A DNA stretch of 64,000 nucleotides from Vicinamibacterales bacterium (GTDB lineage Bacteria; Acidobacteriota; Vicinamibacteria; Vicinamibacterales; JAMQPK01), in assembly GCA_963744405.1 (NCBI GenBank), contig CAVUTO010000001.1:52339-116338 (forward strand). Reading direction: 5' to 3'. The notes beneath the pieces were generated by a model. The model saw only the letters and a list, made by a program, of their open reading frames with translations, searched no databases and had not been told where the DNA came from. Made by a program: the position numbers and the translations under genes. Below are positions 36,956-42,898 of the stretch, one piece after another (within the stretch, counting starts at the first letter, position 1; each line of letters starts with the position of its first letter).

Positions 36956-38454
36956 TGCGGCTTCTTCTCGCAGGCCTCGAACGTCAGCACCGCCAGCCCG
37001 CTCGGTACGGACTTCGGAATGAGGCCGCACAGTTTCCCTTTTTCCGCTCGCGGATCGAGCAGCCCGGTCTTGACGAATTGCGTGACATCCCGAATCTGCG
37101 GTTCCGACAGATCGATTCCGCCGTTCTGGAACAACGGATGGAAATACGATTCGTGGATGCGCGGTCCGATCCGGCGTCGAAGGTCTCTGTCTATGCCCGC
37201 GGTGTCGGGGTTGTAGGGCTGCGACGGGTCCAGGTGGAATCGAATCGCATCCTCGAGCCTCGCAAACGCGCCGTTGTGGAAGTACGCCGGCGCCAGCGCG
37301 ATGTTCCTGAGCGGCGCCGTGCGGAACTTGTACTTGTCGGCCGGATCGCCTGAAATCTGCATAGCGCCGAAGTCCTGATCGAAATCGGGACCGTCATACA
37401 CCATATTGCTCTTGCCGAAAGGCGGCGCGAGCTGGGGGATGCCGGCGACGTGATTCTCGAAGTCGCTGAACATCTCGTTCGACCGCCCCCTGGTCGCGTG
37501 GCACGCAATGCATTTGCCTTCGCCGAAGAACACGAGAGCGCCGCGCTTCTCCTCGTCGGTCATCGCGTTGTGCTGTCCACGCGCGAACCTGTCGATCGGC
37601 GCCGTGGCGAACGTCAGCGTGAACTCGAATTCGGCAATCGCGCGGCCAAACATGTCGAAGTCAATGGGCGCGCCGCGTTTCACTTCATGAAAGACCTTCC
37701 CGAACGCAGCCTGGTATCCGGGCGTCGTGTTGAAAATCTCAAGCACCTGCATCCGAATCGGATCGTTGCGGAATCCAGACTCGTCCGGCAACGGAACCGG
37801 CAGCCCCTTTCCATTGTCGAAGATCTCGAAGATTGGACTGAGGTCGGTGCCAGACGTGCCCGTGAATCCCGCCACTTCGACGAGCTCGGTCGGCGGAGTG
37901 AACGCCTGCGCCTGCAGAAGGTGATCGAGATAGCCCAGCGAGAGACCCTCGGGCGCCGGGAACGTGAACCCGAACATGTTGCTGAACGCATCGCCCAGCG
38001 TTCTTCCGGGGGCAGGGTTTGCGAAGAACCGGCCGTTCCACATCAGCTTCGGGTAGAAGGCGGTATTTATCACGAGCGGCGAGCGGCGCTGATTGCGCGG
38101 ACCAACGCGGTTCGGCCCGACGAGCAAATTGTTGTCGACGCCGATGGCAATCGACTGCGTGTCGCCAAAGCCGTTCGTAGGTGAATGACAGCCGCCGCAG
38201 GTGTTGTCGCGATGCAGCGATTGGACGTTGTCGAACCACAGCAGGCGGCCGAGATTTGCCAACTGATTGTCGATGCGACGTCCAAGCCGGTCTTCGAGGG
38301 TCGACTCCACGCGGCCGGTAAAACCGTGCTGACGAAGCACACGAGCGAGCCAGCCATCCAGGTCCGATCCGCGGCCATCGTCTGCAGAGACGACGAATCC
38401 GAGCGACAGCGCCAATATAACGCTGACCGCGATAACCAACTTTCCGGCTCTCAT
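36949..38454 (-). CDS. Di-haem cytochrome c peroxidase (CCP/MauG family)
   Basis: Intact 501-aa ORF with signal/anchor MRAGKLVIAVSVILALSLGFVVSA. It has two CxxCH motifs (NTCGGCHSP and GKCIACHA). Confidence 0.9.
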   Translation of the reverse strand: MRAGKLVIAVSVILALSLGFVVSADDGRGSDLDGWLARVLRQHGFTGRVESTLEDRLGRRIDNQLANLGRLLWFDNVQSLHRDNTCGGCHSPTNGFGDTQSIAIGVDNNLLVGPNRVGPRNQRRSPLVINTAFYPKLMWNGRFFANPAPGRTLGDAFSNMFGFTFPAPEGLSLGYLDHLLQAQAFTPPTELVEVAGFTGTSGTDLSPIFEIFDNGKGLPVPLPDESGFRNDPIRMQVLEIFNTTPGYQAAFGKVFHEVKRGAPIDFDMFGRAIAEFEFTLTFATAPIDRFARGQHNAMTDEEKRGALVFFGEGKCIACHATRGRSNEMFSDFENHVAGIPQLAPPFGKSNMVYDGPDFDQDFGAMQISGDPADKYKFRTAPLRNIALAPAYFHNGAFARLEDAIRFHLDPSQPYNPDTAGIDRDLRRRIGPRIHESYFHPLFQNGGIDLSEPQIRDVTQFVKTGLLDPRAEKGKLCGLIPKSVPSGLAVLTFEACEKKPHP

Positions 38455-38822
38455 CTATATGACCGCTCTCTTGCTCCACGCGCTTACGCGACGAGCGTTT
38501 CCGTGCCGAGGCGTCCGGCGAGGTTGACCTAAAGCAATCTAGATACCGCGTTGCAGGACGTAATGCGGCTCTATAAATATCTGACGTGTCGCTACTTACA
38601 GATTTGCACTCTTTTTCTTCAACTCCGAGAAGTGTGCACCTTGCGTACGCCTTCGGAGCAAAGTCAGGTAAACATCACACAGTCAACTACTTAGGCGTGT
38701 GCGATTTCGGCACCCGACCACGAAGTTGGTGTCGTCCTCGTAACTGTCTGATTGATCAAACTTTATCTGCGCTGGCCTGCGTGCGATGTGCCGAAACGAC
38801 ACACGACACGACGAATGCGAAA

Positions 38823-39194
38823 TTAGCGTCGCCGGTTGAGAGCCCCGCGGATTTCGGCAAGCAGCGGACCGAAATCGGCAGCCTTCTTCACGAAGGCGTC
38901 CGGTTGCGGGTGTCGGACGATGTGATCGGGATCGTGCGGGTCGCCGGATGTAAGCATGATCACCGGCACCGCCTCGGTTGCCGGGTCGGCTCGAAGCGCG
39001 TGCAGGAACGAAAACCCATCCATGCCCGGCATGATGCTGTCGGTGACGATCACATCGGGCAGCGACTGGTGCACCTTCGCCAGGCCATCAGCGCCATTGA
39101 CGGCCGTGTCGACTTCGTACTTTTCGCTTTCGAGAATCATCCGCAGGAAGTGGACGATGGTCTCGCTATCGTCGACTATCAGCACTCGGCTCAT
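38823..39194 (-). CDS. Stand-alone CheY-like receiver-domain response regulator
   Basis: 123-aa ORF reading MSRVLIVDDSETIVHFL...DVIVTDSIMPGMDGFSFL...PVIMLTS...AFVKK. There is no output domain. Confidence 0.9.
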   Translation of the reverse strand: MSRVLIVDDSETIVHFLRMILESEKYEVDTAVNGADGLAKVHQSLPDVIVTDSIMPGMDGFSFLHALRADPATEAVPVIMLTSGDPHDPDHIVRHPQPDAFVKKAADFGPLLAEIRGALNRRR

Positions 39195-39469
39195 GAAGGT
39201 GCGGGATTATAGCGGCTGGGTGGTCGATGGTCTATGGTCTTCGGGGCGCCCCGACAGCGTCGCCGTCCGGGATCACCGGTGCCGCAAACAAGGGAAGCTC
39301 GGCGCGGCAAAACACGTCGCCGACGGTTGTTGTTCAATGCCATGGCGCTCGGACCAGGCTTGGTCCTCGCGGAGGTGGTCGCCTCCGTGTTTTGTCCACT
39401 GACGCCCTCGCGCCGCCTTCATTGTTTGCTGTACCGGCGCTCCCGGCCGGCGCCGCTGACCGCCCGCAT

Positions 39470-40312
39470 ACAGCGTGGGTCCCGCCGGGGAGACAGGCTT
39501 CCTGCAGCGAGCCATCGCGAGCGACGCGACACGCGGCGCAGCCGGAAACGCATCGGGAGGCGTGAGATCCGCATGGCGACGGCGAAGAAACGGACTCCTC
39601 GACCGTCGGCGACACCGCGCCGGGAGATGCCCTCCGCGGGAAACGCCACGCGTGGCGTTTCCAGCGCACTTAGCGACCGAACGCACGCAGTGTCCGCCGG
39701 GCAGACAGGCTTCCTGAAGCGCGCCATCGCGAGCGACGCGACGCGCGGCGCAGCCGGAAACGCATCGGGAGGCGTGCGATCCGCGTGGCGACGACGAAGA
39801 AACGGACTCCTCGACCGTCGGCGACACCTCGCCGGGAGATGCCCTCCGCGGGAAACGCCACGCGTGGCGTTTCCATGCGCACTTAGCGACCGAACGCGCG
39901 CAGTGTCCGCCGGGGAGACAGGCTTCCTGAAGCGAGCCATCGCGAGCGACGCGAATCACTGCGTAGCCGGAAACGCATCGGGAGGCGTGGGATCCGCGTG
40001 GCGACGGCGAGCAACGGACTCTTCGACCGGCGGCGACACCTCGCCGGGAGATGCGTTTCCCGCGTCGTCGAGCTGGCTCACGGAAGGAAGCCTGTCTCAC
40101 GGTGGAACGTGCGCCTCGATGCGCTAAGTGCGAAGCGGAGCCTCTCCCGCGTCGTCGAGCTGGCTCACGGAAGGAAGCATGTCTCCCCGGTTGGAAACGT
40201 GCGCCTCGACGCGCTAAGTGCGAAGCGGAGCCTCTCCCGCGTCGTCTAGCTGGTTCGCGGAAGGAAGTGTGTCTCCCCGGGTGGAAGAGGATCGGGCGCG
40301 CTAGTGCGAGGC
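39470..40312. repeat. Composite repeat array: about 2.8 direct copies of a 212-213-bp unit, then 3 copies of an 87-90-bp unit that is the inverted homolog of part of the long unit
   Basis: The word gacaggcttcctg recurs at 39492, 39704 and 39917. Each full long unit holds the perfect 24-bp palindrome ggaaacgccacgcgtggcgtttcc (39639-39662, 39851-39874). Short units start with cgcgtcgtc at 40061, 40148 and 40238. They contain ggaagcctgtctc and gcgctaagtgcg, the reverse complements of gagacaggcttcc and cgcacttagcg in the long units. Confidence 0.9.
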
Positions 40313-40320
40313 TTTCACCA

Positions 40321-41136
40321 TCAGTGCGTCATCGCGTAGAGGAGGATGTTGATCCCGATCGCGTAGCCTTCGACCGAGAACCTGTAGAAGAACTCGGGAT
40401 CGTCGGCTTCGCGCTCGTACGCATCGCCGAAGTCGGTGTTGTGCGTCGTCAGCACGACGATGCGGCTGTTCGCATCGACCAGCGCATAGGCGTGCGGCAC
40501 CCTGCTGTCTTCCCACTGCTCTGACGTCTGCCCGCCCGAACCGCGGAAAAAGCCGATGTTAGGGATTTGCGGTATGCGTTTCGCCTCGAACAACGTGCGG
40601 AAAATCGAGTGAGTGATCGGCAGATCGACAAGCGGGTATTCGGCTGCCGGGAGGATCTTGCGAAGCTCGTCGAGCCAGTGATCCCAGGCATAACTTCCCC
40701 ACGCATCGTCGGCCCACAGGAACCCGCCCTTCATCAAGTACGCGCGAAGCGCCTCGACTTCGTCTGGCGCGAAGAAGGCGCGGCCGTGATTGGTGACCAT
40801 CAGGAACGGACACTTGAACAACTCAGGCTCGATCGCTTGAATGACGACGTAGTTCGGCGTGCCCTGCTTGTCGAAATTGACCGCGGCTTCGGACAGCTCG
40901 GAGAGCCGAATCGACAGATTCTCGTCGGCACGCGGGTAGTCGACGCCCCACCCTCCGCCATATCCGCCGAACCCTGAGCGGAACGCCAGCCGGCAGAACG
41001 TGAAGTCCCCTTTGAATGTGTCGGCGGCTGGCCGGCGCACGCCGTAGTAGCCGCCGCCGCCTCGCTGGGCGTACGCAGCTGTCGACACGACGACGAGTGC
41101 CGCCACCATCAGCCGGCTGCCGTGCTTGAAAAACAT
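40321..41136 (-). CDS. DUF4159-like exported protein
   Basis: 271-aa ORF with signal peptide MFFKHGSRLMVAALVVVSTAAYA. It carries FTFCRLAFRSG..WGVDYPRADENLSIRLSEL and PFLMVTNHGRAFFAPDEVEALRAYLMKGGFLWADDAWG, as I remember the family. Confidence 0.65.
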   Translation of the reverse strand: MFFKHGSRLMVAALVVVSTAAYAQRGGGGYYGVRRPAADTFKGDFTFCRLAFRSGFGGYGGGWGVDYPRADENLSIRLSELSEAAVNFDKQGTPNYVVIQAIEPELFKCPFLMVTNHGRAFFAPDEVEALRAYLMKGGFLWADDAWGSYAWDHWLDELRKILPAAEYPLVDLPITHSIFRTLFEAKRIPQIPNIGFFRGSGGQTSEQWEDSRVPHAYALVDANSRIVVLTTHNTDFGDAYEREADDPEFFYRFSVEGYAIGINILLYAMTH

Positions 41137-41222
41137 AACGAGGCAGTTATTCTACCGGAGCTCAGCGAAGTTTGGCGTAACGCATTAGCGCGCGCACGCG
41201 TCCTCTGGTAAATTCTCCGGCC

Positions 41223-42898
41223 ATGAGAGCTCTGGCGATCGCCTCATCCCTGTTCGTCGCACTGTCGGTTGTCGGATGCCGGCCGGCGCCTGCCGAACAG
41301 CCGCCGGCGCCGACGACGACCGCGCCCCCTGCAGCCGCCCCACAACCGCCGCTCACCTTCGGCGCAGCATCATCACCCCATCCGTACGTCGAACGCCGAG
41401 GCGCAAAAGATGTTCGATCAGGGGATGGCGCAGGCTTTCGGCTTCAACCACGAGGCCGCGATCCGATCGTTCGAGCGCGCAGCCGAACTGGATCCGTCGG
41501 CACCGATGCCGCACTGGGGTAAGGCGTGGGCGCTCGGCCCGAACTACAACCTCGATATCGACGAAGCTCGCGCGAAAACGGCGTACGACGCGCTCGCGAA
41601 AGCGCAGTCGCTTGCCGCCACCGGAGCCGACAACGAGAAGGCATACGTCGAGGCTCTGGCCGTGCGCTACTCCACCGATGCGAAAGCCGATCGCGCCGCG
41701 CTCGCGCGCGCGTTCAGCCAGGCGATGGGCGATCTGTCGCGCCGGTATCCGGACGATCTCGATGCCGCCGTGATCTACGCAGAAAGCCTGATGAACCTGA
41801 CGCCGTGGAAGCTCTGGACGCCGGACGGCACAACCGGCGGCGAACACCGAGGACATCGTCACCGTGCTGGAATCGGTGCTGCTGCGCAGTCCGAATCACC
41901 TCGGCGCGAATCATTACTACATACACGCGGTCGAGGCTTCGCGCACGCCGGCGCGCGCGCTGGCAAGCGCACAGCGCCTGACCACGCTCGCAGAATCGTC
42001 GGGGCATCTGGCTCCATATGCCCGCGCACATTTACGCGCGCACGGGCGACCATGCAGGCGCCGCGGCGGCGAATGCGGCGGGCGCGGCAGCCGATCGCCG
42101 CTACCTGGTCACGCGCGCCGCCGAACGGGATGTACGGAATGATGTACTACCCGCACAACCTGCAGTTTCTCGCCGACTCGCACATGATGCAGGGACGATT
42201 CGCCGACGCGAAGCAAGCTGCCGATCGCGTGGCGGAGCACTTGAATCCGCACGCGGCGATGATGCCGATGGTGGAATCGGTGGTCGTCATGCCGGTGTCG
42301 GTCCTTCTGCGGTTTTCGAAACACGCCGACGTTCTCGGACTGCAGACTCCGCCCGCAGACCGACCCGTGCAGCGCGCCTGGCATCACTTCGCGCGTGGAA
42401 CGGCACTCGCCAAAACCGGCAGAGTGGATGAAGCCGCGGCGGAGAGAAAGCTGCTTGCGACGGCGATTGCGGCCGTTCCTGAAACCGCCGCATTCGGCGG
42501 AGGCGGGTGGGCGACGGCAGCAAGCGCGCTCAGCGTCGCCTCGCTCTCGCTCGACGCGCGTATCGCCGCAGCGCGCGCAGAGCACGATCGGGCGATCAAG
42601 TTCATGGCAGCAGGCGGTCGCGGCGGCCGATCAGCTTCCGTATGACGAGCCACCCGTGTGGTTCTATCCGGTGCGCGAGTCGCTGGGCGCCGCTCTGCTC
42701 TCCGCAGGGCGCGCGGCGGACGCGGAGCGTGTCTTCCGCGACGATCTCGTCAGGCACCCACGTAACGCCCGCTCGCTGTTCGGGCTGAGGACGGCTCTGA
42801 AGGCGCAAGGCAAGGAGGCGGATGCGGCCTGGGTGCAGCGCGAATTCGACGAGGCGTGGAAGAACGCGGATACGAAACTGACGCTCGACGATTTCTGA
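41223..42898 (+). pseudogene. TPR-like lipoprotein, about 5 frameshifts as assembled
   Basis: The lipoprotein signal is MRALAIASSLFVALSVVGC. The sensible text hops frames: NAEAQKMFDQGMAQAFGFNHEAAIRSFERAAELDP...; LESVLLRSPNHLGANHYYIHAVEAS; HMPAHIYARTGDHAGAAAAN; GMYGMMYYPHNLQFLADSHMMQGRF...; ADQLPYDEPPVWFYPVRESLGAALL...TKLTLDDF, with the stop at 42898. Confidence 0.6.

Follow-up and report, generated by a model that had tools for sequence, protein, structure and literature searches.

BOX elements of Streptococcus pneumoniae have the order boxA - boxB(n) - boxC (PMC3049150). REP sequences, which make up the REP clusters or BIMEs of enterobacteria, are 20–40 bp in length and carry a GTAG or CGTC tag, REPINs are mobilised by RAYT transposases, and a published survey has noted in Acidobacteria a RAYT-like transposase clade that is distinct and has long inverted repeats (PMC3733652). 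Bacterial MITEs have likewise been defined (PMC11602168, PMC3049150), and these are the described systems with which the present locus is best compared.

The locus lies in a 64-kb window (by which we mean the whole stretch of DNA that was analysed) from a member of the Vicinamibacterales. These are abundant, mostly uncultured soil bacteria, and to our knowledge their non-coding DNA is essentially undescribed. We conclude that a 1.1-kb gap between two genes of the window is probably a lineage-specific insertion of a non-autonomous, modular interspersed repeat, similar in kind to a BOX element, BIME or MITE, that has been amplified locally. The hairpin modules belong to a previously undescribed family found between genes in soil Vicinamibacterales; they are ordinary in kind, and by itself the family reveals no new biological mechanism. 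It is nonetheless the first defined interspersed-repeat family for the order, with profile models, a module grammar and a documented filled and empty site. It should be of use in assembly and binning (repeats break contigs), in strain typing, and in annotation, by keeping Arg-rich ORFs that run across the arrays from being called genes. It also provides a starting point towards the enzyme by which, in Acidobacteriota, hairpin elements are moved with no duplication of the target.

Organization of the array and its neighbourhood

The gap between the response-regulator and DUF4159 genes spans positions 39195–40320 (1,126 bp), and its features are listed in Table 1. A sequence-only reading had described here a gene-free region of about 1.1 kb with about 2.8 copies of a 212–213-bp unit, a perfect 24-bp palindrome in the full units, and three units of 87–90 bp, and all of these are borne out. 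Tandem Repeats Finder (TRF) reports a long-unit array at 39482–40054 (period 212, 2.7 copies, 93% matches) and a short-unit array at 40058–40286 (period 90, 2.6 copies, 90% matches), and the palindrome occurs exactly twice in the 64 kb, compared to none by chance. When the three short units are reverse-complemented and aligned with the three long ones, the positions AGACA..CTTCCT...CCA...CGACGCG, together with CGCACTTAGCG, prove invariant; a pattern derived from the alignment columns that do not vary among the six copies matches three times on the plus strand and three times on the minus strand of the window, with zero expected, and every match is in the array. The same reading had taken the short unit for a reverse-complement homologue of part of the long unit at roughly 70%, and we find 70–82% identity to the reverse complement of the 5′ part of the long unit, while the short units are 92–93% identical among themselves. 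The array can be written (A-B-P-T)x2 + A-B + (inverted A-T′)x3, in which both T and T′ (GCGCACTTAGCGC / GCGCTAAGTGCG) and the A and inverted-A arms are inverted repeats. The segment formed by long unit 3 and short unit 1 is a full-length nhmmer match (model positions 2–265, E 6e-66), short unit 3 stops about 8 nt short of the DUF4159 stop codon, and nhmmer finds no further copies of either of the two repeat families of the insertion in the window outside this locus.

Table 1. Features of the insertion and its neighbours (positions in the window)
Feature	Position	Strand	Evidence
Inserted segment, whole, 1,081 bp	39240..40320	+	~97%-identical strain has 20 nt (GTAGGGCACTGGGCCACCCG) instead
Module X, ~200-nt non-coding hairpin module, second dispersed family	39255..39458	+	nhmmer E 5e-68
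Long unit 1 (continues after P with start of T)	39482..39693	+	TRF, six-copy alignment, nhmmer match 39480-39630
Long unit 1, part A	39480-39530		
Long unit 1, B core	39531-39634		
Long unit 1, P palindrome hairpin	39635-39666		
Perfect 24-bp palindrome P, GGAAACGCCACGCGTGGCGTTTCC, copy 1	39639..39662	unstranded	exact match
Long unit 2 (A-B-P-T)	39694..39906	+	TRF, alignment
Perfect 24-bp palindrome P, GGAAACGCCACGCGTGGCGTTTCC, copy 2	39851..39874	unstranded	exact match
Canonical fold-back element, long unit 3 + short unit 1	39874..40134	+	nhmmer
Short unit 2, inverted A + T′ + terminal GAAGCGGAGCCTCTCC	40148..40237	+	TRF, alignment, core pattern
Short unit 3, end degenerate	40238..40312	+	TRF, alignment, core pattern
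Response-regulator gene, CheY-like, receiver-only, 123 aa	38823..39194	-	Pfam Response_reg, E 8e-21
Sigma-70-like promoter of response-regulator gene, TAGACC-17-TATAAT	39206..39234	-	promoter scan
DUF4159 gene, 271 aa, neighbour	40321..41136	-	Pfam DUF4159, E 6.5e-32

The P hairpin looks like a collapsed form of the stem GGAAACGCATC...GATGCGTTTCC, by which the B domain is closed, and P variants at other loci keep their stem by paired changes (GGAAACGTCAC/GTGACGTTTCC and GGCAACGCCAC/GTGGCGTTGCC). The A-B core of long unit 2 is 94.5% identical to that of unit 1, and the nearest relatives of the three A-B cores of the window are each other (91–94.5%, versus at most 88% to any other copy), a mutual closeness that fits amplification of the modules, whether here or at a donor locus. 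It could be supposed instead that the tandem unit number has been inflated or collapsed by repeat mis-assembly, since such repeats are poorly handled by short-read assemblers and the public read sets yielded only the empty allele and no filled one; but the units are not identical, differing by 4–9% at scattered positions, and tandem arrangements of the same kinds (A-B-A-B, A-B-P-A-B and S-S-S-S) recur in independent assemblies of other loci, including a large MAG contig, and we consider an assembly artefact very unlikely.

Although the array itself has the extent given by the sequence-only reading, the repeat-derived segment as a whole begins further to the left than that reading had placed it. 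A search with the array masked shows that the seemingly unique spacer at 39255–39450 matches other loci at 85–90% identity, and it corresponds to a further module, X, with copies in 10 other loci that include L014, L021 (three copies), L022, L030, L041, L042 and L051. Module X folds as its own domain, usually adjoins the A side of the other modules, and has an ORF of 49 codons (39422->39273) that is destroyed in most copies.

The response-regulator gene does adjoin the array, as had been pointed out with the suggestion that it is an orphan regulator; however, it is a mere neighbour outside the element, because the order DUF4159 / response-regulator / MauG is conserved in relatives that lack the array. 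A link of the array to either the response regulator or DUF4159 was considered and rejected, the pair being syntenic without the array in the relatives L001–L003 and in metagenome contigs. Homologues of the window DUF4159 protein are from named Vicinamibacterales (Acidobacteriota), which assigns the window to that order; an exact look-up of the protein in the contig collection gave no record. The DUF4159 stop codon abuts the insertion. A promoter scan of 38700–40700 identifies only the response-regulator promoter, whose TATAAT is at the same place in L001 and L002, and none inside the array; the -10 box ends 11 nt ahead of the ATG, a distance that suggests a transcript with a very short or absent leader.

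It is conceivable that the array consists of functional DNA sites that bind a regulator or nucleoid or topology proteins and act on this promoter or on local supercoiling, a role that has been proposed for BIMEs. The palindromic P, T and the invariant motifs have the size of protein-binding sites, and the insertion ends about 5–15 bp upstream of the -35 hexamer. However, at other loci the modules adjoin unrelated genes, frequently at the 3′ end, and do so in either orientation, and the response-regulator promoter works without them in the relatives, such that we regard this explanation as improbable.

The promoter is overlapped by a short heptamer repeat (39221–39240; TRF, period 7). We observe heptamer tandem repeats of the form GACCATA/GACCATC/GACCACC just upstream of the TATAAT on the minus strand (39213–39245), and in the same place in L001 (6817–7000; GACTACC) and L002 (6811–7165; GCCCATA, GACCATC). 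In both of these relatives the same heptamers recur in inverted form directly after the DUF4159 stop codon, and the whole spacer can therefore form a hairpin; the heptamer sequence varies between genomes and the arrangement is kept. Elsewhere, a family copy truncated within A abuts heptamer repeats (GTCGGTAGTC GATAGTC...) like those of the L001 spacer (L027, 1600–1660), which suggests that such arrays are frequent in these genomes and that they may be insertion sites.

Empty sites, dispersal and mobility

Contigs of a strain that is about 97% identical in the flanks of the insertion join 39239 to 40321 with only the 20 nt of Table 1 between them, and we regard this as the strongest result on mobility. 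It comes from a single study with four soil metagenomes: the empty joint was seen in runs X49 and X51, and X50 has a matching loose end. An empty junction is also present in a contig of run X2. The syntenic relatives L001–L003 have the same gene order, with DUF4159 proteins that are 86, 83 and 79% identical to that of the window and spacers of 184, 355 and 93 bp, none of which contains family modules. Because the array is lacking both from the ~97%-identical strain and from these more distant relatives, the empty state is ancestral and the 1,081 bp represent one insertion. The empty site also excludes one of the proposals made from the sequence alone, that of a replication- or recombination-related structure, insofar as it would be essential to the chromosome. 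Alignment of the 20 nt to the filled ends suggests that the truly foreign part is about 39250–40309, and no clear target-site duplication is apparent in the comparison of the filled and empty sites. At the left end there is a perfect 14-nt palindrome (TCGGGGCGCCCCGA, 39240–39253) that is not part of module X at other loci and may have formed at the insertion junction.

In the same soil metagenomes the modules have a depth of about 111, compared to 1.5–5 for the single-copy flanks, and unrelated DNA is found attached to a near-identical A module; many near-identical copies must therefore be present in those communities. The core pattern is found at two further, non-syntenic places in one Vicinamibacterales MAG, and the conserved 20-mer CTCCTCGACCGTCGGCGACA matches 46 metagenome stretches, about 30 of which are true members (up to four of them on one 176-kb contig), the remainder being chance hits within a conserved coding gene. 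Members of the family are thus known from about 30 soil-metagenome contigs and the one MAG, and nhmmer reports 90 ABS matches and 30 X matches across the loci. All of the copies are intergenic, many of them 3–60 nt from gene ends, and their orientation to the neighbouring genes is mixed; the neighbours are unrelated to one another (TonB-dependent-type outer-membrane, NHL-repeat, GSDH, BON and DUF5916 proteins), and neither a transposase nor a conserved neighbouring gene was found beside family copies. A viral, plasmid or phage origin was rejected: the core pattern and the 20-mer have no matches in viral contigs, and comparison of the region with PLSDB and INPHARED gave no plasmid or phage match.

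The order of modules is colinear everywhere, (X)-[A-B(-P-T)]n-[S]m, and n and m vary. The commonest form, with about 14 non-redundant copies outside the window, is a fold-back of 260–300 nt with T and T′ at its ends: inside these, two complementary variable stems enclose A, the B core and then A again in inverted form (the short unit, S). A comparison of unit copy number between related genomes, as the sequence-only reading had proposed, finds the site empty in the close relatives, and it is between loci that module numbers differ. In one copy (L004, 3977–4010) an A-rich stretch (GAAACGAAAAACGAAAAAGGAAAACCGATC...) replaces most of the B core and both arms are kept, from which it follows that the B core can be swapped out. 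We also note a separate REP-like palindrome, GCCGACCTAAAGGTCGGC, that is present exactly in 10 of the fetched loci, often directly beside X or ABS copies (for example L012 871–888, L014 865–882, L017 8011–8062, L022 5202–5219, L021 2223–2240 and 8652–8669, three sites in L042, and others); it is absent from the window even with three mismatches allowed.

Copies have been gained, lost and recombined between orthologous loci. For example, L017 and L028, which are 88% identical through the adjacent gene, have the element at the same site, with arms of different subtypes (L028 is chimeric) and an extra 96-bp block in L017; L028 also has one more copy, without a counterpart in L017. Examination of 25 copies shows that the longest flanking direct repeats are 6–9 bp, against a mean of 6.7 and a 95th percentile of 9 in a mismatched-flank control, and in 24 of them there is no target-site duplication above that control. 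The sole exception is the L005 copy, bordered on both sides by a direct duplication of 18 bp without mismatch (CGATTTGCTGAATTGATT, 2584–2601 and 2959–2976) that includes the last codons and the stop of the upstream DUF5916 gene and is far longer than a usual target-site duplication. The same locus contains a G-rich short tandem repeat (GGCGGTGGTGG..., 740–842) inside a long ORF, which probably encodes a Gly-rich low-complexity segment.

These comparisons indicate that the family is mobile, or at least highly dynamic, and unlike a MITE moved by a DDE transposase. The lack of duplications and the conserved irregular hairpin would fit either single-strand mobilisation of the HUH/Y1, RAYT-like type or recombination-based copying. 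A crude HUH...Y..NP regular expression applied in six frames to 355 kb of carrier DNA, a small sample, has no match to RAYT-like genes; the Acidobacteria clade of RAYT-like transposases may offer a lead towards the mobiliser, though not a test.

Fold, coding capacity and transcription

The sequence-only reading had proposed that the whole locus can fold back as a long interrupted hairpin, and both strands do so, at about -590 kcal/mol over 1,076 nt. A consensus fold of 12 non-redundant copies contains 71 pairs. In its two outer helices 12 pairs have compensatory double changes, compared to 5.8±1.6 in column shuffles (none of 500 reach 12) and to 1–7 when the partners are slid, while the inner helices and the B core show no variation among the 12 copies; the B core is unvaried across genomes whose genes differ by 12–20%. 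All 12 aligned copies also conserve a GAA/GGA 3x3 internal loop and a 16-nt bulge. The hairpin structure is thus real and maintained, and the data fit maintenance at the level of either RNA or DNA. In L005 the segment 2602–2958 is a near-perfect palindrome (arms of 67 nt at 96% and 34 nt at 100%) in which the normally one-sided bulge has been copied onto the other arm, showing that palindrome formation at the DNA level does occur in the family. The stem mismatches (17 G.U versus 11 A.C) were considered as a guide to a putative RNA strand and proved uninformative, singling out neither strand.

The element has no coding capacity. Two ORFs of 297 and 275 aa exist and had been judged from the sequence to be translations of the repeat; they have no significant Pfam family and, because the 212-bp period is not a multiple of three, each reads successive units in different frames. 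By inspection, the small ORFs in the unit are broken or shifted by indels between copies. Coding potential was rejected on these grounds, together with the lack of conservation of the module X ORF. A search of the 64-kb window against Rfam 15 gives nothing at gathering score, a search of 38000–42000 at E up to 10 gives nothing on the array (the single permissive match, at 38070–38150, lies off the array with E 7.3, far below gathering score), and there is nothing relevant in six other loci; the view that the locus matches no described element is upheld by both Rfam and the literature searched.

Could the modules be multi-copy structured non-coding RNA genes, or UTR RNA modules of the neighbouring genes, with the array a tandem RNA cluster whose B core and purine-rich internal loops would be the binding sites of a protein or ligand? 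The invariance of the core and of the internal loop and bulge, and the compensated variation of the outer stems, are what would be expected of such an RNA. Furthermore, family words are present in at least 18 metatranscriptome libraries, and contigs from RNA libraries cover A-B and T-A-B-S. However, these contigs are read-length and unstranded, their depth of 2–4 is no greater than that of a DUF4159 fragment of the same library, and DNA carry-over is possible; no RNA runs that hold the window genome were found. Other observations also argue against an RNA: the array has no internal promoter, the insertion has a single terminator-like hairpin, which belongs to the X stem, orientation and gene context are as mixed as described above, near-identical strains differ in whether they have the element, neither the G.U and A.C counts nor Rfam lend support, and compensated palindromes can arise in DNA, as in L005. 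We think it unlikely, on balance, that the array is an RNA cluster of this kind.

A more specific suggestion of the sequence-only reading was a protein-sponge RNA, and a CsrA/RsmA-type sponge with many GGA words in hairpin loops might be envisioned. GGA is indeed enriched on the plus strand (29 versus 19.4±3.3 in shuffles; ANGGA 8 versus 3.6±1.8), and the conserved hairpin ACGC-AUCGGAAG-GCGU places one GGA in a loop of each long unit. However, the enrichment is as strong on the minus strand (20 versus 11.5±2.5), the density of about 35 per kb is modest, and several GGA words lie inside consensus stems. CsrB and RsmZ have their own promoter and terminator, dense loop GGA on one strand and a conserved locus, whereas this locus is without promoter and terminator of its own, is absent from relatives, matches no Rfam family and has ordinary RNA depth. 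The sponge explanation is not sustained, and we consider it highly improbable.

Origin of the insertion and comparison with described repeats

We therefore return to the insertion of interspersed repeat DNA as the probable explanation, in which the element most likely behaves as selfish mobile DNA. Non-autonomous DNA from two non-coding hairpin families, X and the fold-back, would have inserted between the two genes, and would have duplicated its own modules in tandem either after insertion or beforehand at a donor site; we infer this local amplification from the similarity of the units. The elements would be copied in trans by an enzyme encoded elsewhere, one that probably recognises a folded single strand (HUH/Y1-type), or would spread by recombination, rather than by DDE cut-and-paste; the first two are favoured because there are no regular target-site duplications and because the hairpin is irregular with an invariant core. 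Module numbers may then have changed by slippage or unequal recombination. As by-products for the neighbouring genes, the DUF4159 transcript would carry a very stable RNA hairpin in its 3′ end, and DNA upstream of the response-regulator promoter would be displaced.

Several observations weigh against a purely selfish repeat. The invariant B core and compensated stems could reflect selection for an RNA- or DNA-structure function and not just recent spread, a heuristic scan found no mobilising gene, the neighbours are ordinary genes, and family words occur in many metatranscriptomes. There is accordingly a small chance that the invariant A-B core of about 150 nt is a functional folded nucleic acid, either a new class of multi-copy structured RNA that soil Vicinamibacterales would express or a folded single-strand DNA signal for a recombinase, a reading that draws on outer stems that vary only by compensated changes and on the conservation of the purine-rich 3x3 loop and the one-sided bulge. 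Integron attC sites and REPs are DNA signals that are read by structure, and we know of no such recombinase identified to date in Acidobacteriota. Either form of functional signal would be more interesting if true.

As a non-autonomous interspersed repeat, the family resembles MITEs such as Correia, ERIC and Nezha in its terminal inverted repeats (at least 10–15 bp in MITEs), tight fold, intergenic dispersal in multiple copies and filled/empty polymorphism. It has no transposase inside, and its basic unit of 260–300 bp is within the MITE range of 50–800 bp, although the window composite of 1,081 bp exceeds the usual MITE size through amplification. Unlike MITEs, it has no regular target-site duplication of 2–10 bp, and its DNA is 68% G+C and not AT-rich. 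No parent insertion sequence sharing its ends was identified, the carrier DNA covered being 355 kb.

The family also resembles BIME, REP and REPIN mosaics, which are palindromic and assembled in direct and inverted orientation, intergenic, often just past stop codons, and which form hairpins, differ from strain to strain and have no target-site duplications (PMC3733652). A BIME-like REP cluster was the closest of the three options put forward from the sequence alone. However, the P hairpin (24–28 bp) is the only part of REP size; the main modules (A, B, S and X, 50–200 nt) are 5–10 times longer than REPs, which are imperfect palindromes of 20–40 bp, and on inspection neither a GTAG nor a CGTC tag borders P, whose flanks read CGCG... 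and ...ATGC.

In design, the family is closest to the pneumococcal BOX elements. Both are modular, intergenic, dispersed and non-coding, with pairing terminal modules, a variable number of internal tandem modules and no clear target-site duplication (PMC3049150), and the A-B(n)-C stem-loop plan of BOX is recognizable in the arrays described here. The likeness is one of design only, the host phyla being unrelated, and we claim membership of no named family. Unlike BOX, the family has larger modules (50–200 nt) that are G+C-rich, and amplification has involved the arms as well as the central box.
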